NCBI RefSeq assembly: GCF_009834535.1
Contig: NC_045696.1
Coordinates: 88,352,001 to 88,416,000 of the forward strand
Source of the DNA: Camelus ferus
Lineage: Eukaryota
DNA length: 64,000 bases
Direction of reading: 5' to 3'
Part shown: one piece after another, positions 51,201 through 64,000 of the stretch
Layout of the letters: each line of letters opens with the position of its first letter
Position numbering within the stretch: the stretch's first letter is position 1
Position numbers and translations under genes: made by a program
Notes under the pieces: model-generated
Told to the model about the DNA's origin: nothing
Seen by the model: only the letters and a program-made list of their open reading frames with translations
The model's database searches: none

Positions 51201-54200
51201 AGGATCCCAGGATTCAGTACTCAAATTCCTCCCCTTCTCTATATAAAAACCCCTAGAAAATCTCTTCCAATTTCATAGCTTTAAATACCATCTATATCCC
51301 AAATTCATTATCTCCAGTCTGGGCCACTCCCTTACTTATCCAGCTCCTCACTCAGTATTTCTACTTCCATGTCTAACAGACACCTAAGTACCACTCTGAG
51401 ATGAGCTTTTCTCTCTCCCACCTGACCTGCTCCTCTTGAAGCCTTTCCTACTTCGCTAACAGCAACTCCCTCTTTCTGGTTGCTCAAGTTAAGAACCATG
51501 GAAGTCATCCTTGACTCTTCCAACTCATAAACATACGTCCAGCTTCATCAGTAATTCTAATGACTGTCTATAAAACATCCAGAATCTGTCTGCTTCTCAC
51601 CACCTCCACTACTGATCCAAATATCATCATTTCTCACAATTATTTCAATCGCTTCCTAAATGTGCCCACCCCCATCACATCTATTCTAAACACAGCCAGG
51701 GGGAACCGGATAAACTGTAAATCATTCATTTTACTATTCTGCCTATACCCTCTATACCTATTATACTCAGAGTAAAAACCAGTCTTCAAAGGGTCTACAA
51801 GGCCTGACCTACTCTGACTTTCCATCGTTTCTCTGGCCTCATCCCCAATTACTTTTCCTTCCCCACTCCACTCTAACCACATAGGTATGCTCCTGCCTCT
51901 GGCCACTATATTTGTTTTCTCCATAATGTTCTCCTCCAGATTGCAGCTCCCTCCCTTACTGCCTTTAATGTTTACTCAAATGTCACCCTATCAATGAGGC
52001 CTCCCCTAACCACTGTATTTCAAATTCCAACTTTTCCCTGTACAGTTCTTATCCCCTTCCTGGTTTTTTCCTCCACAGAATTTACACTTTTTAATATACC
52101 TACTTATTTTGTTCATTGCCTACTCCACACCCTCCCCTCCAACTAAAATAAAAGTTCCCTAAGACTGAGATTTTTCTCTCTTATTCACTGTACTATTCCT
52201 AATCACCAAAAACAGACTGGCACAGAGCTGACATTTAATGAACATCTGCTGAATGCTAGTGAATTATTAATAACATTTAACAATAGCCTGAAGTATGGAA
52301 GCAAAATACCAAGTTACATAAAAAACTGAATCCAAAAAACTGAGAAAAATCAGTTAACAGAAAGAAAGTAAAAAACAGTAACAATCCATTATCAAACTTT
52401 TAGAAAAATTCAATAGACTGCATCAAAGACATTAAAAACTCTAAACTTAAAATGTTACTACTTAAAAAAAAAAAAAAAGGAAGACAAAAATTGGAAAATA
52501 AAGTAAATTGCCAGGAATACAGGAAAAAGACAGAAAGATTAAAAACAATACAAGTGCAAAAAGGCAAAGTTTTAAGCCAGTAGGGCCAACGACTGATACA
52601 AATTCCAGGGAGGTAAAAAAAAGGAAAATAAAGGGAGAAACTTCGAAGAACTATTACTATCAGTATTTAAGAGAATCTGAAGGCCTTCAAATCAAGAGTC
52701 CATCAAGAGCCCACCAAGTTTAACATAAAGAGAACAGTGGGGGAGGGTAATAGCTCAATGGTAAAGTACATGTTCAGCATGCACGAGGTCCTAGGTTCTA
52801 TCCCCAGTACCTCTATTAAAGAAAAAAGAAATAAAATTGAAAGTGTTATGTAGAGAGGTTAACTAGACTAACAAACCCTATTTTTGGGGGGAGACATTTG
52901 TGCACCAACTTTAAGTAATAGGCATAAATTTTTTTTTTCCAGAGCAGTAATGAAAATTTTTAAAAAACAGAATATCACAGTCCTAATACTATAACCTCTT
53001 AAATTACATTGAGCAATGGCTTTATATATTTTCAGACAAAACTACTGCACGTAAGAGGTTCTCATTAAATAATGAATGAAAAAATTTGATTCTAAACTAA
53101 ATCTTTTAAAGCAAAAAGATTTTCATTTCCGTAAGAAGAGAATATATATAACTTTAAAAATGAAAACAGCATTTGTAGTAGCATGCTTACCAATAGTAGC
53201 ATTTAAGTTATTTTGGAAAATCTACTCAAACAACGGTTTTCTGAAAATGAGAGATTAAAACACACACAAACCCCAACAAAAACTGATTTTAGCTATTTGA
53301 CCTACCTTACTCAGAGGGGCTTTGATTTTTTTCAAACACAAAGCAAGAAGTTCCCTGGATTCTAACGCACACTGTATCCAAGTTCCTGGTGGCTGGAAAT
53401 ATCTGAGAGAAAAGATAATATATTGAAACCCAGTATCTCTCAGAAAAAAAAAAATTCCATCTGAATATATAGACATAACAATGATTATAAACCAGATATA
53501 ATAATATTCAAGGTTGATCTGAAGCATTTAACCCAAATATATTTTAATAGTTCTAGAAAACTTTCAGTTAAACCAATAGCTTTAATTAAAAAGGTAAAAT
53601 CTGAGTATTTGAGAAAGTCAATTTGAAACAACTCATTAAAAGGTCTTATTACTTCAAGCACCAATAAGAATTTCAGTGAGGATGACAAAATGCCCAACAC
53701 TTCCTTGAAAATAGCATTAAAATGGTTTATAATGTACATGTAAAATACTTATAAACTGCTTATTTCTCACACACAAAGGAGGTAAATTAGTACCTAATAC
53801 TATGTGTCAATATAGTTCAAACTATTTATCTACTTCAAGTCCCTTTCCAAATTTTAAATTATAAAACTGAAGTTTTAAAATCTTATATAAACACAACATT
53901 GTAAAATGACTATTACTCAATAAAAAAAGTAAAATAAAATAAAATCTTACATAAAACTTGACTAAAATCAAAATTTAAATTCCTAATGCATGTACTGTAA
54001 GTTTTTTAGCCCAGCCAGCCCAGGACTTAAATCAGTGTCTAACACACAGTAAGTGCTCAACAAGTTTGTTAAATAATAATACTTCTAATGTGTTTTGATA
54101 CATTTGTGAATGCTTTTTTTTTCCTTTTGGCCTACCTATTAATTAAATATTCTGATTTTCATTTTTAAAGGTTCACTGAAAAACCTTATACAGATTTCTT

Positions 54201-56626
54201 TGTTACAAGCATGTATTTGGAGTTAGAAAGGACTTCATATATTATCTAATAAAGCCCCTTCACTCTGATGAAGAAATAAAAGCTTAGAAAAGGTAAGTGG
54301 CCAAGAGTCTCAAAGAGCTAGTTTGTGAGAAATTCAAGACGATCTAGGTCTCCAGATTCTTTGTCCAATGTTTTTTTCACTCTATTACACTTGTAAATAT
54401 TTGTTAAAGATTAAGCCTCACACCTGCCAAACTTGAATAAGCATATATAAGCTTGTATATGATATATAAACTCCCTGAAACAATACACAAGTTTCTTGTG
54501 TTTGTACGTATGTACGTTTCATGCATTTTTCTGGGGAGGTGCAGTTTTCAAATTCTTAAAGGGATTCACAAACCTTTCCAAAAAAGTTAAGAACCACTAC
54601 AGTCCTAACCCATTTGGGAAATCACAGGAATACAATTTTCTGGGAAGTTACACTGGGAAGTTCCGTATTACTCAAAGGCCTAGGGAGGCAGTGACTGCAG
54701 TACCAGCAGCAACAGTGGTGACTACAGCGCAGGCTGCAGTGTGTATCCTGTGAGAGTGATGTCTGTGTGATTTTTGACTGGATGAGTTGTCTCTGCTGTG
54801 TAATTCTGGGTGGTGTTCCTGGCTATATGGCCCTGACTCTTGTCCTCCACTTTCCTGTGGATTTTGGGTCCTACCAAAAGCATGTCACAAATTCCTTTCT
54901 CCTAACTAAGCTTGAGCCAGTTTCTCATGCTGGTAACTAAGAATATCACACAATAAAGCAATTCATTCCATTCTTTAAAAAGGCTTCTGTTAGACTGTCA
55001 ACTAAAGAAAATGAAGAAGAAATAAAACATTAACTTTCAGAAGAAATCTGCCTTCAAATCCAGTCTTTATTTCAGATCATCCTAGATATGATACACTGAC
55101 CTTTTTTTCCATTAACTATAGTCATTTTAGTTACATGGGAACATCAATAGATACAATTTTTAAAACACATTGGTAACTTACTTTAAAAATAAGGTGCCTT
55201 TTATCATACATGGCTTCTTGTGATTGAAGGGAAAAATAAAAGCATCATGGTAATTAACAGTAATGTCTTTAAAATCTGCTGTCACCTTTAAAAACATCAA
55301 CTTGTATCAATTAACTGTATACATCAAACCTATTAATCCCTTAACAGAGAAAGAACAGATACAAATACCTTTGTAGCAGGGCAAACTACTAGAGTATGCT
55401 ACAAAATTGCAAATTCTAAAATCTCTAGCTATGCCAACATAAATAAAATGTAAATCTCAATTACATGCACTTTATTCCATGTATCTTAGTGTAATCTCAG
55501 CATATCCTAGTGGTTCTCCTAAATATAAATCTCAACTTTAAACAGGATAAAATAGTACTACATACCTTTGGCATTGTTTGCAGAAAGATATAGACACTTG
55601 TTTTGGAATGCCTTGGCTGATATCTACTTTACTTCGCAGACAGGCCACACAAATATTGGCAGGATTTGGACTAATTGGGACACCACAATCGCAGCACAAG
55701 CTAAAATAAATAAAGCATACGTTTTTCAAATGAGATTTCATAAGTGTACTAGCTAAATTAAAAAACTATCAAACAAACAAAAGCCTTCAAGTTAGGCTAT
55801 AATATCTCTGCCTTTTTAAAAAAACTAACTTAGAGCAACCTTCAAAGATACAGTAGATTAAAAAATAACCTTGGAATAGTGAGGCAAAAAACAAGGATGG
55901 CCACAATTTCAAAAATCCCCAAAATATAATTGAGTACAAAGGATCTAAAGAGTCTAAATCATTTCTAACAGTAATCATTAGACTGCTTCATAGTCCAAAG
56001 GCAATTCTTTTAAGGCCTCAGTGTAGCACAGGGACTGCCAAAATGTAACACATTTACCCAGAGCAGAAAAAATTTTAAAGGATGGAAAGGTAACATGTTT
56101 AGTGATTCAGTACAAAAGATGGGAGTTTCATAAACCTAAGTGCACTGGGGACAGAAAATGTTTAAGAATAACTGATGTTACCCAGAAGAAATGTTCTAAG
56201 GTCTATGTTGTCCAATATAGCAGCCACCAGGCATATGTACTATCGAGGACTTGATACGTGGGTAGTAGACCAGGGAATTGAATGTTTAATTTTATTTTCA
56301 TTTTAATTAAATTTAAAAAGCTACATATGGCCAATGGCTATTACAGCAATCTAGAATTATGTATAGTGAAGATTTTAATACTCTTAAAGCAGTATTTACT
56401 ACAACAAACTTTCCAGGGGAAAATGAATTCGATTTTCTCAGGAAATAAGGCTTTCCATTTTTCCCATTTAAGACAAAAGAATCTGCCCATCAAAAGAAAC
56501 GATTTTCCCCACAGCAAGTTTCAAAGACTCACGTTAACATTTTTAAATTTAAGGGGAATGGGGTAAAAGGGACGCAACTTACATGTGTCCAGGTGTGCAG
56601 GTGACAGATTCTGTCATATACTCCAT
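28334..56626 (-). CDS. NMD3: NMD3 ribosome export adaptor, full spliced CDS (15 coding exons, 1512 nt, 503 aa)
   Basis: Exon lengths 44+135+97+81+129+91+79+97+118+146+113+73+107+71+131=1512, phases consistent, all GT-AG. Translation MEYMTESVTCTPGHILCCDCGVPISPNPANICVACLRSKVDISQ...LAEMLEDLHISQDATGEEGESMMT* has four CxxC pairs, basic NLS KRQRRRNWKLK and Leu-rich NES. Confidence 0.98.
28913..28983 (-). CDS. NMD3: NMD3 exon 15: QYQDFLEDLEEDEAIRKNVNIYR
   Basis: 71 nt, TAG acceptor, GTTGGT donor. Confidence 0.96.
29870..29976 (-). CDS. NMD3: NMD3 exon 14: VLIKKSYDRTKRQRRRNWKLKELAKERENMDADNE(R)
   Basis: 107 nt, TAG acceptor, weak GTTCCA donor; contains the NLS. Confidence 0.96.
31320..31392 (-). 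CDS. NMD3: NMD3 exon 13: FDLANCNLNDEHVNKMKSDRIPDV
   Basis: 73 nt, TAG acceptor, GTAAGG donor. Confidence 0.96.
32208..32320 (-). CDS. NMD3: NMD3 exon 12: HTLGEVWVQKTSEMNTDKQYFCRTHLGHLLNPGDLVL(G)
   Basis: 113 nt, AAG acceptor, weak GTTTGT donor; phase matches exon 13. Confidence 0.95.
33170..33314 (+). mobile_element. tRNA-Ala-derived SINE with (GTAA)n(ATAA)n tail
   Basis: B box gggttcaatcccc; flanked by tgaatc direct repeats. Confidence 0.85.
33890..36915 (+). mobile_element. L1 ORF2 (RT region) to 3' end, antisense in NMD3 intron 11
   Basis: Decayed ORF2 peptides (YRPIS, KIQPSFMIKTLSKLGIE, gcagatgacatgatc = ADDMI); nested short L1 end 34990-35167 with TSD aaaatc..aacaagtta. Confidence 0.85.
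37860..38005 (-). CDS. NMD3: NMD3 exon 11: (V)ADIDGNTFWSHLFNSLCHPRQLEEFIVMDCSIVRDLKRSAGAGMISKK
   Basis: 146 nt, TAG acceptor, GTAATT donor; in ORF 37830..38036. Confidence 0.97.
39015..39132 (-). CDS. NMD3: NMD3 exon 10: DNVVCLSSKLAQSLGNMNQICVCIRVTSVIHLIDPNTLQ
   Basis: 118 nt, TAG acceptor, GTAAGT donor. Confidence 0.97.
39978..40180 (+). mobile_element. MER58-like hAT element
   Basis: cagaggtctgcaaa...taaataaagttttgctggaacacagcc. Confidence 0.65.
40230..40470 (+). mobile_element. MIR SINE
   Basis: ttgggcaagtcatctaacctc...tttcctcatct core. Confidence 0.7.
41134..41230 (-). CDS. NMD3: NMD3 exon 9: YKASQRLISQDIHSNTYNYKSTFSVEIVPICK
   Basis: 97 nt, CAG acceptor, GTAATT donor. Confidence 0.97.
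41912..41990 (-). CDS. NMD3: NMD3 exon 8: (D)GLDFYYSSKQHAQKMVEFLQCTVPT(R)
   Basis: 79 nt, poly-T tract plus AAG acceptor, GTATGT donor. Confidence 0.97.
42120..46800 (+). mobile_element. Highly decayed composite L1 with nested L1 ends and a MIR (~45390-45620)
   Basis: Strong A-skew; L1 ORF2 and 3'UTR motifs. Confidence 0.6.
48204..48294 (-). CDS. NMD3: NMD3 exon 7: TLHKKTFYYLEQLILKYGMHQNTLRIKEIH
   Basis: 91 nt, TAG acceptor, GTGAGT donor. Confidence 0.97.
48572..48700 (-). CDS. NMD3: NMD3 exon 6: VMNGAILQQVFVVDYVVQPQMCGDCHRVEAKDFWKAVVQVRQK
   Basis: 129 nt, CAG acceptor, GTAATA donor; in ORF 48500..48700. Confidence 0.97.
49481..49561 (-). CDS. NMD3: NMD3 exon 5: VRLVDASFVWTEPHSKRLKVKLTIQKE
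   Basis: 81 nt, AG acceptor, GTAAGC donor; WTEPHS motif. Confidence 0.97.
51150..52262 (+). mobile_element. L2 3' region
   Basis: ctttaaataccatctata, gtcatccttgactc, tgctgaatg motifs. Confidence 0.7.
52739..52836 (+). mobile_element. tRNA-Ala-derived SINE
   Basis: tagctcaatggta...agcatgcacgaggtcctaggttctatccccagtacctc plus A tail. Confidence 0.85.
53306..53402 (-). CDS. NMD3: NMD3 exon 4: YFQPPGTWIQCALESRELLALCLKKIKAPLSK
   Basis: 97 nt, CAG acceptor, GTAGGT donor; in ORF 53255..53527. Confidence 0.97.
55566..55700 (-). CDS. NMD3: NMD3 exon 3: LCCDCGVPISPNPANICVACLRSKVDISQGIPKQVSISFCKQCQ(R)
   Basis: 135 nt, acceptor AG 55702-55701, donor GTATGT; seen in ORF 55538..55741. Confidence 0.97.
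56203..56352. mobile_element. MER3/MER33-like hAT element
   Basis: tgtccaatatagcagccac...catatggccaatggcta; a related copy lies at ~47920-48115. Confidence 0.55.
56583..56626 (-). CDS. NMD3: NMD3 coding exon 1 (gene exon 2): MEYMTESVTCTPGH(I)
   Basis: ATG at 56626-56624 in aaaATGG context; donor GTAAGT at 56582. Confidence 0.93.
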
Positions 56627-56869
56627 TTTTCTGTATACCTTGATTTAAAAATGAGAGAGAATACTGAGATTTAAGACATTTGTCTAGTCACCTCTTTATA
56701 CAAATCTTTCTTCTGCCTCTCTGAATGAGGCAGCCAAGCCCCGTAAAGCAGCAAACAAGAAAAACCAATTCGATGTGGTACCTTGTGACGAACTGACTCC
56801 GTTAATAGCAGAACCAAGCGCATTCCGGAGTTTGCAACTACAAGACCTTAGAGCCAATAACCTGACCGC

Positions 56870-57530
56870 CAACCAGGGCGAACTCCAGGTGGGCCAGACG
56901 GGACTGAGGCCGCCCCGCACACCCCCACCCTCACCCCGGCGTCTGGAGTACCTCAAACCCGCACTGCAGGAGCCCACGGGCAGTCTCAACACGCCTGCGG
57001 ATCACCCACCCCGACCCGGCGCCCCGCACCCCTCACCCCGCCCGTGAGACCTCACGCCGGCTGCTGGCCCGCGGCGCACACGCTGCACGCACGCGGCCCG
57101 AAGTCGGCCCGAGACCGAGAGTCCGGCTCCCTCTCTCCTTGGGGACCCCGCGCGACTGCAGCCCGAGTCTTAGACCCCAGAACCTACTTAACGCCTCTGA
57201 GCTTGGCGCAGACTTTCTGGAAAACCGCGACAGAACCACCTCCTCTCACCCCGCAAGCAGCCACCACAGCTGACTCCGGTACTGCAAAAACCTCGCGAGA
57301 GAAAGGCTCGAAATCCCGCGGGCTGAGAGACGCGACTTAAAGCGGCGGGTGGGGACGGAAGAAGGGGAGGGCATTGTTGAGCGGTGGGGGTGGGACGGGG
57401 CTGGGCGAGGGGCGGGGCTGAGCCGCGTGAGGGGCGGGGCGGGGGGGCCTGGGCGGGGGGCCTGGCCGGTGGGAGGGATGCGGAGAGAAGGCCGGGGCTC
57501 TCGTACTATGGTTTACATCGTGCCGATTTT
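56870..57530. promoter_or_regulatory. CpG-island promoter of NMD3 with GC boxes and a BANP/ZBTB33-type motif
   Basis: Dense CpG in an AT-rich window; GGGGCGGGGC at 57409-57418 and 57431-57440; CCTCGCGAGA at 57291-57300. Confidence 0.9.
57188..57290 (-). other. NMD3: NMD3 non-coding exon 1 (TSS approximate)
   Basis: Lies in the CpG island; donor ...GAGGCGTTAA|GTAGGT at 57187; resembles the human NMD3 5'UTR as I recall it. Confidence 0.6.
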
Positions 57531-58704
57531 CCCTGGCCAGAATTCACTGCAAGCCTGCCTCGCACATGTATATAACACCACTTTTCAGCTGTCCCTATTG
57601 GGAGCTTGCTTATTGGTTAAATTATATAAAAGTTATCTGTAAACAATTCCACACTGCACAAAGAAATTAAACTCCATCGAGAGCAGTGCCTTTGTCCCTT
57701 TTGCTCACCATCATATGCTTAATGATAACTGCTCAAATGAATATTTTTTGGATAGATGAAAGAAAGAAATGTAAGAAATAATTATTTGTGGAGTCATTTT
57801 TTGATCACTCTAATTAGAATGTGCTTTCTCATAGTGCACTTAATATTTTTTTTAAGACTTTACACTTTGATCTTAGAGCAACTCAGACCATGTCTAATCA
57901 CCCTGATTGGCAGAATTTCAAATATTTGAAGATCATGACCATATTTTTTATGTCTTCTCCAAATTTCAAGAAATAAGCAAGGTCATCTTACAGAAGGTGA
58001 TCAAAGAAGGCCTCCCATTTCTTGCCTAGGGTACTTAGTCTCCAATTCCTTCTTCTTACTTCAGGATTCCAACCCATCCTTCTAAAATGCAAATGTAATT
58101 TTGTCACACTCCCCTGTTTTAATCCTTCAGTGGTCTCTGATCTTCTGGATTATTTCCAATTTCTCTGAATAGAAAGATCTTTCAGGATCTGACCTTGGCA
58201 TATCCTGTCACACTCCTAAGCACACAGCCACACAAACAACTGTCAGGTCCTGCAGGAACTAATCTGCCTTTGCTTACACCTGGGACACTCCCCCTTAAAG
58301 ATTAAGCTCAAGCATGCTGTATGAGTTTCCTATTGCTGCTGTAATGAATTATCACAAAATGTGTGCCTTAAAACAATGCAAATTTATCATCTTACAGTTA
58401 TGAAGGTTGCAAGTCTAAAAACAAATGTTCCTCCTTCAGGTATGATCTGACAGTATTTTTACAGGAGGTGTATGCCTCTATAATAATGCTAGCCACATTA
58501 AATTGGATCACAAATTTGCTCTTTGCATTGTCCACAGGTTTAAGCTCCGGGAGAGCCGTCCAGGTCTTGTTCTTCTCAGTATTCCTTTCACCTCGCACAA
58601 AACAGACCCTCAATATATGTTGGTAAATTAATTATCGATTTGACACAACCACTCTGAAGAGACAGTGTATATCTCCTCATTTTTTCCATTCACATTATCA
58701 TTTC

Positions 58705-59262
58705 TGGTGAGCCAAATACCACTAGGAATACAACTGTAGTTAAACAGATTGTGTTTGTTATTCATTAAGTGAATGCAAACACACCATGAGGAATCATGGA
58801 GTATCTCAGTAAGAGGGTGCTAGAAAAAAGCCCATCATAGAATATGGGCTTTGGTTGGGTAACTTGGGGATGGATGGTCTAAGAAGCAGAGGTTTGCTCT
58901 AAATTGGATGCCATCAAAAGCAGAGGCAAGTCTATGACTGGATAGCTCCATAAATCTTATGTATAGGAAGAGAGGCAAAAGAATGTAGCAGCAATTAGTA
59001 AAGAAGTATCCATCACTCATTTTTGGCTGAGAGGGAGTGTTTGGTATTTTGTGGGTGGCACAGTGACCTTGTATTTATCTACACTTAGAAAAAAAATCAT
59101 GCAGTGGCTTTGCTTTGGCTCATTTTATCATGGTCTCAGAGAAACCTTGTCTGGGGTTGATATTCTGTTAAATTGTTTATGTCTAACAGGAGAATGATGT
59201 GGGCTACCTGTGAGTCTAGGCCAGCTTCTGAATGTCGGGGGCTGCTCTGTTTTTCTTTCTCA
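58705..59262. mobile_element. ERV-type solo LTR (family not determined)
   Basis: ~550-bp TG...CA-bounded segment with LTR-like composition. Confidence 0.5.
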
Positions 59263-59563
59263 GTACACTCTTCCCATACCCTGTTTGATTTGGCACCAAG
59301 TGCCTCAATGCCAGGCTTGTTAGGCACTGGATATGTAACAGTGATCAACACAAACATGGTCCCTGCCCTCACAGACCTTATATTTTACAGATGAGGCTGA
59401 TATTGCAGAAGATTAGATAATCTGCTGGGATTTCTACAGCAAGTAAGTGGCAGAACAAGACCCGAACTACAATTTGTCTAACTCTGTACCTGTGCCCTTA
59501 ACACCATACCAAGCTGCCTGCTCTTCTGAGGCTCAGGCCAACTATTTTTATTCACAGGTATTT

Positions 59564-61359
59564 GTTTCTTTTTTAAGAAATTTTATTTTCCATCAACCGT
59601 ATTTCCATTTTCTGTTTAAGAGTACGTGAAGGATCAGCGTGAGACCACTCAGTGGCTGTTCCTCCCCATCCAGTGGCCTGAGCAGTGGGGGCTGCAGTCA
59701 GGTCTCAGGTGGGCAGGTCGTAGCCATCTTCAGCAGGAGCGGCTGGAGGGCACGGAGGCCACGGCACCTCCAGACCCATCTGCAACTTCTAGTTGAGTGG
59801 CAGTAAATCTGGGACCTAGAGCAGTGCACTTACCCCGATATTTCTCCTGGGTCACAGCCTCTTCAGCAGCCGCCTGCTCTTCCTTCTCAGTCCCGTCAGG
59901 ATCTCCGTGGAAGCAGAGATCAGGCCTGACCTCCCGGGGGCGCTCCCGGGGATGCGGCTGTGCGTGCGCAGAACCCCCAGGCCAGCATCATGAGTCCCGA
60001 CCCGCTGGGTGAGCTCCCTTCTGGCTGCAGGGATGGCGGTGTCCACACAGCGCAGAGTCCATGTTACAGGTCAACATCAGGCGCCTCTGTGAGAGGCTGG
60101 GGGCAGCCCTGGGATCTGTAACCACCCGCAGACACGGCTGAAGGCTGCCTGGAGCCGGTCAGTGAAGTTTCCAGAGGTGGAGCTGTACCAACGGGAGCGG
60201 CTCTGGTGGCAGCAGCAAACTTCAACACAGCTCACTGGCCAGCGTTCCTGGAGGACAGGACACTGGCATCAGCTGGGTTCTCAGTGTCAACAATGGCACC
60301 AGCTGCCAGCAGAAGCCTTTCCCACATTCTCTTCAGATTTATGAGTTAATGCCATCACTTTTCCTTTTGTGGACGTGCTGTTCCCTTTGGAAATGACAGT
60401 TGGTGCCACCTAAGCGGGTTCTACTGCAAGGATTTGAGGACATTCTCCTCCTTCATTTGCAGGACATCGCAGGCTCCAGACATTGTGAAAATTCCCCTTC
60501 AAGTCACAAGGGGTCCTTAAAAAACTAAAAATAGACTTACCATATGATCCAGCAATTCCACTCCTGGGCATATATCCAGAGAAAACTGTAACTTAAAAAG
60601 ACATACGCACTCCATTGTTCACAGCAGCACTATTTACAATAGCCAAGGCATGGAAACAACCTAAATGTCCACTGACAGATGAATGGATAAAGAAGATGTA
60701 TACACACACACATATATACATACACACACAATGGAATACTACTCAGCCATAAAAAATTAATGCCATTTGCAGCAACATGCATGGACCTGAAGATCATCAT
60801 TCTAAGCGAAGTAAGCCAGAAAGAGAAAGAAAAATACCAGATGATATTGCTTATATGTGGAATCTAAAAAAAGACACAAACTTATTTACAGAACAAAAAC
60901 AGAACACACTTAAAGTTACCAGGGGGTAAAGGAGGTGGGAAGGGATAAACTGAACGTTCAAAATTTGCAGATCCTAACTACTATATATAAAAAAGATAAG
61001 CAACAAATTTCTACTGTATAGCACAGGGAACTATATTCATATCTTGTAGTAATCTATAATGAAAAAGAATATGAAATGGAATATATGTATGTATATGCAT
61101 GACTGAAACATTATGCTGCACACCAGAAATTGACACAACATTGTAAACTGACTATAAATCAATTAAAAAAAAAAAGGAAAAGAAAAAAAGTTGTGAATAC
61201 CAGGAGGGAAAGTGGGAGGTGGGGGGATAAATTGAGAGTTCGGCATTTGCAGATACTAACTACTGTATATAAAATAGATAAACAGCAAGTTCCTACTATA
61301 TAACACAGGGAACTATATGCAATACCTTGTAATAGCCTATAATGAAGAAGAGTATGAAA

Positions 61360-61393
<34 letters not shown>

Positions 61394-61547
61394 AACTGAA
61401 TCACTATGCTGTACACCAGAAATTAACACAATGTTGTAAACCGATTAAACTTCAAAAAAATGTTTTAATTTAATTTTTTTAAAGTTACAAGGGGGAGCCC
61501 AGAACAACGCCGCCATATGAACCTCAGTCTGGTTAGCGTGGAAAGGC
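59564..61547 (-). pseudogene. RPSA: Processed RPSA (uS2 / laminin receptor) pseudogene, full length, 5'UTR interrupted by L1
   Basis: Intronless MSGACDVLQMKEENVLK from ATG 60483 to ...TATEWS with former stop at 59641-59639; 845 nt vs 888 expected, with frameshifts; AATAAA 59587-59582; A-tail remnant; 5'UTR continues at 61482-61547; degenerate TSD cacaggtattt (59553) / cacaggctttt (61548). Confidence 0.93.
60514..61481 (+). mobile_element. L1 insertion (two tandem 3' ends) in the RPSA pseudogene 5'UTR
   Basis: TSD aagtcacaagggg (60501-60513) / aagttacaagggg (61482-61494). Confidence 0.9.
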
Positions 61548-62289
61548 CACAGGCTTTTGACAAATGAAATATGTTTATGGTAGGAAGAACCTATATTTCT
61601 CCACCTACTTCTCACCCATCAGTACTAAGATCTCCAGATGTCAGAAGTAAGTGCTTGGTGTCGAATGTCTCTGCCAGAAACCTGGATGAGCTTGTTAGGA
61701 CTGGTTGGACAGACACATAATATTGGCAAATTATACCAGAGAGAAACTCATTTTGCACTTTGTATTTAATTCTCAAATCTCACTTTGAAAAAAATGGGTT
61801 CTCTTGTCCCATAGTCCTTACATTTGGGGTATCTGTCCTTATTCAAATCTTAGCTTTAGTTTGTTTTTACAAACTTAAATTGTGTGTTTGACCTCAGTTT
61901 TTAAATGGAATTCCTAAAAGGACTAGATGGCTTTGACCTCCTAGCAAGTTACAGGTTCAGCGAATTCATCATCCACTAACTCGTCAAAAAAAATTTTTTT
62001 ATAACAGAATGCATAAAATCTCTTTCAAGACCAATTACGGTAAATATAAATATTGATTTTTATCTCTTGTTTTAGATTATAATATACCTTTCTTAGAGAC
62101 AGGCTGAATAAGTGTTTTAAAAGAAGTAGAGTTTTTTTAATTTTAAGTAACTTCTAGACCTAGCAAGTAGTAAATGCTCACTTAATATAGGTTAATCAAT
62201 GAAATTCTACACAGAACTTTCCAATGCATAGTGTAACTTTTTTTTTCACACCATCAAATGTGATAGCACTTGTGGGATATCAATATCTC

Positions 62290-62695
62290 ATTGATTGGAG
62301 AGAGCTCAGGAAAGGTTTATTAGGGAGGACTCTAAGAATCAACACCTGAAGAAGGGAAGGACAGAACCACAGTTGGATAGAGGGAGAACTAGTGCTCCCT
62401 TGCCGTCTGATGGAGGTCTCACCACCCATAATGCTGGAAGCTCTGAAGCTGAGATGACTGTTCAGTTTTCCAGAGGGGGCTGGGCCATTGTTTATTGGTG
62501 AGTCATTGGATGTGACTGCTCAAGGGAGGAGGTGTAACCTTGGGTGAGGTTTCTCTCTTTAGCCAAGGCAGTCCCAGAAGTGGGTGGAACTCAGAGCTTT
62601 CTGTCAGCAGAAGGAATAGGGGAACAAGTCGTTCAGAGGAATTAATCCTTCACTCCTGCATGGGGATCTGGGAAACACTTCACAGCATGCACCAC
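62290..62695. mobile_element. MaLR/ERVL-like LTR fragment
   Basis: aggtttattaggga...agctctgaagctgagatg motifs. Confidence 0.5.
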
Positions 62696-63951
62696 ATAAA
62701 AAGTTTGTCTACTAGAACTGATACAAGACCTGGGCTCTAAGAGCCTTGCTTCAAGTCCAAGATTTGCAGTTTATTGACCCCGTGCCCCTAAGGGGTTGTT
62801 CACCTCTCTGAGCCTCAGTTTCCTTCTTTCTATAAAACTATGTAATAATCTGTCCCACATAAAGTTGTTGTGAGAATTGATAGAGATAAGGTATGTTGAA
62901 ATGTTAGTAAGCTGGAAAAAGATGAGCTTAGTAACTGCAAAAAGCTCTTAAGGACGGAGGTATGCTATTCTCCCATGAAGCTCATTACCAGCAACTGAAT
63001 TAAGTGGCAAGGAATGGTTTGTATTTGGTACACCAATATATAGAATTTGAAACATCACACTTGTGATCTTGCTTCACTATTAACTTACAAGATAAATAAA
63101 TTATAAACAAAATAAAAGTTGAGTGCTCATTTTGTGAAATTCATTCAGCTATTACATCTATGCATATGTCTACATGTGATTATATTTAGACAAAAAGTTT
63201 AAAAAATACAAATGAAATCTCACATAGAATCCCAGTAAATAAAACAGACAAAAAAAATTACAATACTAATACTTGATAAATGTCCCCATTTTTTCAAACT
63301 GCAAAATATCAGAGATTAAATTTGTAATGTTCTACTGTAGTTTTTCAAAGATGTAATCACTGACCTCTAGGTTTAGATGCTAGTGACGGCAGAGAACTAC
63401 TACTATAGTAGTAGATGAGGGAATATTTTATAAAGATAAATTTATTAGGTATGATAAAAGACAAGATGAACAAAGGAAAAACAGAAATGAACAAATTTAG
63501 ATGCACCATAATAACTTTCAACAATGAAAGTTTACATGCACTGGGTCTCAAAAAACCAAGAATTTGAGGATATGAAACTGACATTTTGCTCTGACCCTTC
63601 TTTTCAGTAATTGCTACCATATCAGTGTCTCATTTTTCTTAAAAGCCTCCTCACCTTTTGCTCTTAGAACATCTCAAAGATGCTTTGTGCTCTGTTTTTT
63701 TTTTTTTTTTTTTAATTTCACTGTAGCAGGAATGGAAAAGACATCAAAATTGTACTTGTAATGATGAGCCAATCTGGAGGTGATGGGGAGAATTTTCCTG
63801 CCAAGACTGTTTAGAATTAAACTTCCTTTGACTATATGGACATTTTATATAATCTGAAGTTTAGTTTCAGGGAAGAGTCCAGGGATGTACAGGTAGTGTA
63901 AGTAAGCAAATTTAGATGTCAGAAAAAAGTACTTTCTAAAATGTCTGACTA

Positions 63952-64000
63952 GGGGTTGCAGGGTATAGCACAGTGGTTGAGCACACACTTGGTGTGCATG
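63952..64000 (+). mobile_element. tRNA-derived SINE 5' part (cut by window edge)
   Basis: gggtatagcacagtggttgagcacacactt. Confidence 0.65.

Follow-up and report, generated by a model that had tools for sequence, protein, structure and literature searches.

A decayed RPSA retrocopy upstream of NMD3 in Camelus ferus with an excess of A/T to G/C substitutions, probably through GC-biased gene conversion

A dead, intron-less copy of the RPSA (uS2) gene, lying on the minus strand of a 64,000-nucleotide stretch of Camelus ferus DNA (the window), has undergone roughly three changes from A/T to G/C (W>S) for each one in the other direction (S>W), opposite to ordinary pseudogene decay. We give roughly three chances in four to the reading that this excess reflects GC-biased gene conversion (gBGC) acting in place, at a recombination hotspot that either lasted long or was used repeatedly. 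The likely centre of this hotspot is the 3' two-thirds of the copy. The element and its surroundings comprise the following features.

55565-55699, minus strand: NMD3 coding exon (Pfam NMD3, E 3e-10)
56900-57520, minus strand: NMD3 promoter CpG island, recognised by composition and given for context (GC 0.70, 62 CpG)
59553-59563, minus strand: putative target-site duplication of the retrocopy, 3' copy (tentative, by eye)
59564-59574, minus strand: poly(A) remnant, an A-rich run
59575-59638, minus strand: RPSA 3'UTR with AATAAA at 59587-59582, so named from its position rather than from mammalian reference DNA
59639-60483, minus strand: decayed, intron-less RPSA coding sequence (protein homology, codon alignment)
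60484-60513, minus strand: near part of the RPSA 5'UTR, the 30 bases adjoining the ATG, including the near copy of the L1 duplication (60501-60513)
60514-61195, plus strand: 5'-truncated L1 3' end inside the RPSA 5'UTR (sequence pattern)
61196-61481, plus strand: a further L1 3' end, shorter and in tandem with the first (GC* 0.40)
61482-61547, minus strand: remainder of the RPSA 5'UTR beyond the L1, its start at about 61545 rich in pyrimidines, including the far copy of the L1 duplication (61482-61494)
61548-61558, minus strand: putative target-site duplication of the retrocopy, 5' copy (tentative, by eye)

RPSA homology on the minus strand, proposed in the original prediction, was borne out by a protein match (E 2e-18 to mammalian uS2 for the translation of 59730-59987) and by a full codon alignment, in which codons 1-295 fit inside 845 bases from the ATG at 60483 with no introns. 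Bird and fish RPSA genes (loci L005 and L006) have introns across the same coding span. The copy is about 17% diverged and is disabled by 16 deletions totalling 43 bases and by in-frame stops at codons 85 and 274; all 16 alignment gaps are deletions and there are no insertions. Its former stop codon (59641-59639) now reads CAC, as had been stated. The far 5'UTR part (about 65 bases) aligns with three fish RPSA 5'UTRs, and we take its pyrimidine-rich start to be TOP-like. The putative target-site duplication, spotted by eye, is identical at 9 of 11 bases. The copy thus shows intron-less homology, a poly(A) remnant after a polyadenylation signal and a disabled frame, the attributes of a processed pseudogene. 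It is a full-length RPSA processed retrocopy with both UTRs, the 5'UTR having later been split by an L1. The extent first proposed, 59630-60500, does hold the substitution tract, but the element is larger: past the L1, its 5'UTR runs on as far as about 61547. The start of NMD3 lies some 2.2 kb downstream, likewise on the minus strand.

From its sequence pattern we take the insert at 60514-61481 to be L1, with ends of camelid appearance. It is bracketed by a 13-base target-site duplication (60501-60513 and 61482-61494), which makes the L1 younger than the RPSA copy. The two head-to-tail L1 3' ends share this single duplication, none separate being seen around the longer one; they could represent one insertion that brought a 3' transduction. 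RNA runs contained 0.12-0.46 of the sequence words of 55000-64000. The NMD3 and L1 parts could account for this figure, and the share is therefore no evidence for transcription of the RPSA copy. ARAGORN found no tRNA genes in the window, and no Rfam families were found in 54000-64000.

Substitutions were then counted over the whole length of the copy, using as reference the RPSA protein sequence common to 37 therian entries (P0023) and taking an ancestral base only at sites where every synonymous codon agrees. At the 518 aligned sites so defined, all of them non-degenerate coding sites polarised by the ancestral protein, W>S changes affected 55 of 244 sites and S>W changes 21 of 274, with 4 W>W and 8 S>S changes (Fisher p 1.7e-6). 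When 3 bases around each gap were masked, the counts became 52/214 and 17/244, with 2 W>W and 7 S>S (p 2e-7), giving a GC* of 0.78 (bootstrap 0.69-0.86; 0.75-0.78 across both counts). The bias had originally been read from two hand-picked segments, 59933-59877 and 60389-60363 (QREQHVHKR). These do contain the 7 + 4 = 11 amino-acid changes listed for them, and the one counter-example given, D14N, is present at 60444; as a measure of bias, however, they overstate the whole-length count. Over 20 alignment settings (five scoring schemes by four gap masks), GC* ranged from 0.73 to 0.79 and W>S made up 70-76% of the W/S changes. The predicted bias is thus real and strong, yet "almost unidirectional" goes too far, about one W/S change in four running the opposite way.

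The 16 deletions, the divergence and the hand-picking of segments could raise the suspicion of an alignment or selection artefact. The stability over the 20 settings largely refutes this, as do neutral simulations made with assumed mammalian rates and including deletions: none of 600 reached a GC* of 0.75, the maximum being 0.44. The sequence is also represented in 14 public runs under two organism labels, at most 13 of them further samples, which contain 0.89-0.93 of the sampled words of 55000-64000, a share that does not speak base by base for the tract. The chance of an artefact is next to negligible.

A local mutation bias, either the template RNA having undergone A-to-I editing or synthesis at A/T having been error-prone, would agree with the predominance of transitions (36 of the 52 W>S changes). 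Of the two processes, RNA editing produces no change but A>G, and synthesis errors at A/T include A>T. On the sense strand, A>G (23/134) and T>C (13/80) were equally frequent (p 1.0), so that strand asymmetry is absent and A-to-I editing was rejected. The 16 W>S transversions, both T>G and A>C being raised, exceeded the 2 A<>T changes (p 0.0013) and the 5 S>W transversions (p 0.007), and S>W changes were low overall. We consider a mutational origin very improbable. The copy has also gained CpGs: 15 of the 28 in the coding span are provably new, in that they contain a base differing from a fixed ancestral base. gBGC predicts this whole pattern; transcription-linked asymmetry and plain protection of CpGs, like RNA editing, do not. 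The claim of some 30 CpGs in an AT-rich setting proved accurate, 59630-60500 holding 29 CpG at a GC of 0.584 against 0.349 for positions 1-56000. The tract thus combines a W>S excess over the neutral expectation, a bias in transitions and transversions alike with none in GC-conservative changes, and a roughly kilobase scale, which is the form taken by gBGC tracts.

To compare this copy with others of its family, we used 82 RPSA-like proteins of mammals, picked for their names and divergence; 67 came from the 120 matches listed of 574 and 15 from members of the P0023 cluster. Positions variable among 11 orthologues (13 in all) were masked and single-base amino-acid changes were classed. The pooled controls gave a W>S:S>W ratio of 387:664 against 36:16 for the RPSA copy (p 6e-6), a contrast drawn with proteins whose retrocopy status is inferred, which are younger and frame-intact, some of them mutually orthologous, and in which nonsense changes are missed. 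In the 50 controls that had 10 or more classed changes, W>S made up a median share of 0.355, against 0.69 here, and none of them exceeded 17 W>S changes, against 36. Four of the 50 (from elephant seal, tenrec, dolphin and gundi) nevertheless equalled or exceeded a share of 0.69, and the controls were overdispersed (chi-square 155, 49 df). The excess over other RPSA copies that had been looked for is therefore there, but it is not exceptional: the copy belongs to the upper tail of RPSA-like copies and is not unique. Like the ovine processed pseudogenes RPSAP1-11, as the available text of that report describes them (PMC2850357), it is an intron-less, polyadenylated, disabled member of a multicopy family; unlike the median RPSA-like copy (0.36), which drifts to A/T, it drifts to G/C.

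The most W>S-biased controls came from the gundi (P0129, 17:1), white-beaked dolphin (P0091, 15:4), tenrec (P0063, 17:5), southern elephant seal (P0062, 14:5) and galago (P0096, 15:7). Judged from their sequences, these five copies are themselves candidate gBGC tracts. The comparison points to such a bias in about 1 in 12 RPSA-like copies of mammals, a class that can be surveyed at little cost.

The existence of such copies, which shows that potential donors exist, bears on a second explanation. A transcribed RPSA pseudogene could have been GC-shifted elsewhere and then retroposed or duplicated here, with neutral decay since. This would account for a bias coextensive with the RPSA copy, the flanks and the L1 being at background CpG. 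On the other side, the ends of the element are the pyrimidine-rich start and the poly(A) site of an mRNA, with no donor flank, and pseudogene transcripts are generally rare beside the parent mRNA. The one camelid paralogue compared, from alpaca (P0106), is AT-drifting (10:17) and has 1 of its 39 changes in common with the RPSA copy. Together with the poorer fit of early-burst models (below), these observations make a GC-shifted source, which the original prediction had kept as its alternative, unlikely, even though the bias does stop near the edges of the copy.

Those edges would also be expected from ectopic GC-biased conversion with other RPSA copies, in which only the homologous part is rewritten. 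Of the 84 proteins compared, none had more than 5/25 derived changes in common with the copy, and the shared changes recur in unrelated species, as at mutable sites. Conversion with the parent as partner would reduce divergence and not increase it, and ectopic conversion is generally rare between dispersed, diverged copies. We regard this explanation as extremely improbable. Y156C, V171A, Y202C and I210T recur in unrelated copies (musk deer, squirrel monkey and the copy described here); such recurrence indicates mutable sites and calls for caution in inferring a common donor. A seal RPSA-like protein, which was the top protein match and has a five-residue word in common with the copy, was tried as an orthologue and rejected, only 2 of 33 derived changes being common.

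Within the copy, W>S changes follow a gradient, from 9/64 in the first 200 coding bases to 43/150 beyond (p 0.024). Two further features were defined on this basis and on CpG content.

59640-60290, no strand: core of the W>S tract (W>S 43/150, counted after coding base 200)
59884-60083, no strand: best 200-base window, with GC 0.65, CpG o/e 0.62 and 13 CpG, a borderline case chosen as the maximum

The usual rule for a CpG island demands 200 bp with GC over 0.5 and o/e over 0.6; the best 300- and 500-base windows lay below this o/e threshold (0.55 and 0.51). Outside the copy, the CpG fraction was 2/64 in the 3' flank, 3/107 in the L1 and 0/74 in an LTR-like stretch, against a background of 0.033. 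If only provably new CpGs are counted, the contrast between the copy and the 3' flank, where GC is 0.46, is not significant (p 0.16). The LTR-like stretch (58730-59190, so labelled by eye) lies between the copy and NMD3 and has no CpG in 461 bases. The 3' flank at 59190-59555, in which we presume MIR-like and L2-like remnants, has a GC of 0.42-0.50 against a background of 0.35 with just 2 CpG, and it is possibly a shoulder of the tract. A search with nhmmer, using 7 segments, found no second copy of this flank within the window by which it could have been polarised.

The original prediction placed its hotspot 2-3 kb upstream of the NMD3 CpG island. The tie to the island that this implies found no support: the 1.1 kb adjoining the island has a CpG fraction of 5/170 and a GC of 0.37 (0.32 in its first 400 bp), and the 2 kb between island and copy, profiled but not polarised, is at background CpG with GC of 0.32-0.39. 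With CpG at background on both sides up to the NMD3 island, the peak falls on the RPSA copy and not on the island. Such a position speaks against spill-over from a hotspot of the PRDM9-independent kind on the island, 2.1-2.8 kb away, and is at the same time the best argument for a GC-shifted donor. PRDM9-independent breaks involve neither PRDM9 binding nor the double mark of H3K4me3 plus H3K36me3. By the available text of a survey by Joseph et al. (2024), hotspots of this kind are common in placental mammals, are stable, and occur at conserved hypomethylated loci in 33 of 52 mammals (PMC11161765). The amount of change, which calls for a long-lived source, would suit spill-over from one of them, and so would the return of GC* to baseline within 5 kb (PMC11161765). 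In that survey the peak lies no farther than about 200 bp from the hotspot centre, and replacing a methylated state by a constant unmethylated one cost our fits 3.4-7.1 log units. Spill-over is, in our estimation, decidedly unlikely. The copy resembles such hotspots in its high GC* peak, its implied persistence and a promoter island within 3 kb; because its peak lies off the island and the models do not favour hypomethylation, we did not file it among them.

The L1 offers a younger sequence next to the tract. Polarised by majority rule, with subfamily differences inflating both rates, 60514-61195 showed W>S at 24/313 and S>W at 22/134, a GC* of 0.32 without overall GC bias and inside the range of five other L1 fragments in the window (0.19-0.40). 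The half nearer the RPSA copy had a GC* of about 0.46 (W>S 13/134, S>W 8/69) and the farther half about 0.22 (11/179, 14/65), a weak lean on small counts. At the sole mismatch between the two copies of the L1 duplication, the near copy has G where two fish 5'UTRs have A. S>W changes amounted to 7% in the RPSA copy and 16% in the younger L1 within it, the latter rate being inflated by subfamily differences.

Simple models were fitted to five summary counts under assumed rates. A constant B of 2 with CpG decay fitted best (lnL -13.3). Late strong phases were 1-2 log units worse (lnL -14.6 to -15.4), and early bursts followed by neutral decay 2.5-6.7 log units worse (lnL -15.8 to -20.0). DNA kept unmethylated throughout gave lnL -17.8, and a further fit ranked the methylation states alike. 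It is the early-burst shape that a donor needs, since the copy has been resident for at least as long as the L1. In a three-count fit, hotspot activity confined to 5% of the time called for a B of about 60 and was about 1 log unit worse than a constant B of 1.6. Average B was 1.7-2.1 against an assumed mutational equilibrium of 0.30-0.40 GC. Modelled in this way, the counts suggest a long duration of the bias. The W>S total amounts to 0.11 per site (55/518), neutral background included. Single short gBGC episodes described in rodent exons reach 0.014-0.015 W>S per synonymous site in the available text (PMC12290510); against these, and with site definitions that differ, the copy has several-fold more W>S per site, accumulated over a much longer branch.

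Conversion in place thus draws support from the whole-length W>S excess, the excess over other copies and the biased transversions. After insertion of the intron-less copy with its UTRs and poly(A), and later of the L1 in its 5'UTR, the W>S excess and S>W deficit, free of strand bias and extending to transversions, would reflect a fixation bias produced by mismatch repair in meiotic heteroduplex DNA, as established theory has it. The simple models would put B at about 2 on average over the life of the copy, or allow for a stronger late phase. In the same models CpGs would have kept decaying in mostly methylated DNA, as in a "BGC island". The hotspot would have been placed by PRDM9 or by open chromatin, with about even odds. 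That the bias arose where the copy now lies is probable, given the mRNA-exact ends, the gradient, the one target-site base, the weak lean of the L1 and the model fits. On the opposite side stand the background CpG at both edges, which a donor or an episode before the L1 insertion explains easily, an adjacent L1 that is unbiased as a whole, and target-site evidence that consists of one base polarised by fish.

We also considered that the insertion itself seeded the hotspot, the GC-rich copy drawing meiotic breaks in AT-rich DNA for tens of millions of years. This is a doubtful proposition. Such a hotspot would be off the promoter island and never stably unmethylated, and if real it would belong neither with the short-lived hotspots of the PRDM9 type nor with the hypomethylated default ones. 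It would also lie in camelids, a lineage missing from the 52-species survey: none is among the 27 trios of Dataset S3, and Camelus, Vicugna and Lama are absent from four supplementary files (PMC11161765). Dated retrocopies would provide a genome-wide test. Should camelid retrocopies as a class attract lasting hotspots, this would bear on how hotspots are positioned and maintained and on the origin of orphan CpG islands.

The RPSA copy is a clear example of a known process, one more gBGC tract where thousands have been catalogued in humans. What it appears to record is a strong and probably long-lasting fixation bias towards GC that created CpGs in AT-rich DNA. A dead copy of a protein identical across many mammals can record the local substitution process without a genome alignment. 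Processed pseudogenes reportedly served Khelifi et al. in 2006 as reporters of recombination-linked GC evolution. Its W>S cluster, of about 650-900 bp, has the usual size of the tracts called by phastBias: Capra et al. (2013) give a mean of 1,018 bp and a median of 788 bp for human tracts at B = 3 in the available text (PMC3744432), those tracts being called on a genome alignment and ours against an ancestral protein. The class of "BGC" CpG islands of Cohen, Kenigsberg and Tanay is described in a later paper as made by biased conversion (PMC4121359), and orphan CpG islands, according to the available text of a further study, overlap gBGC tracts and have gBGC proposed as a source (PMC10197647). 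The copy is like "BGC" islands in gaining CpGs by W>S change and in models that favour ongoing CpG decay. It differs in that one 200-base window is at island values, the substrate is a retrocopy and methylation is a model prediction.

Our literature search, which left out most subscription journals, found nothing on this locus, on camelid hotspots or on retrocopies combined with gBGC and hotspots, and the ovine RPSAP paper (PMC2850357) does not mention NMD3 in its main text. Mammalian RPSA DNA was found neither in viral contigs nor in metagenome contigs, where 121 candidate stretches yielded 6 loci, bird-like and fish-like as judged by sequence and introns. The end of the window (63950-64000) resembles what we take to be the end of a tRNA-derived SINE. 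One metagenome contig of 1.5 kb (L001) carries at 435-1139 an intron-less, 5'-truncated RPSA stretch amid unrelated sequence, covering codons 62-295 with a protein 97% identical; it is either a retrocopy or a chimeric assembly.
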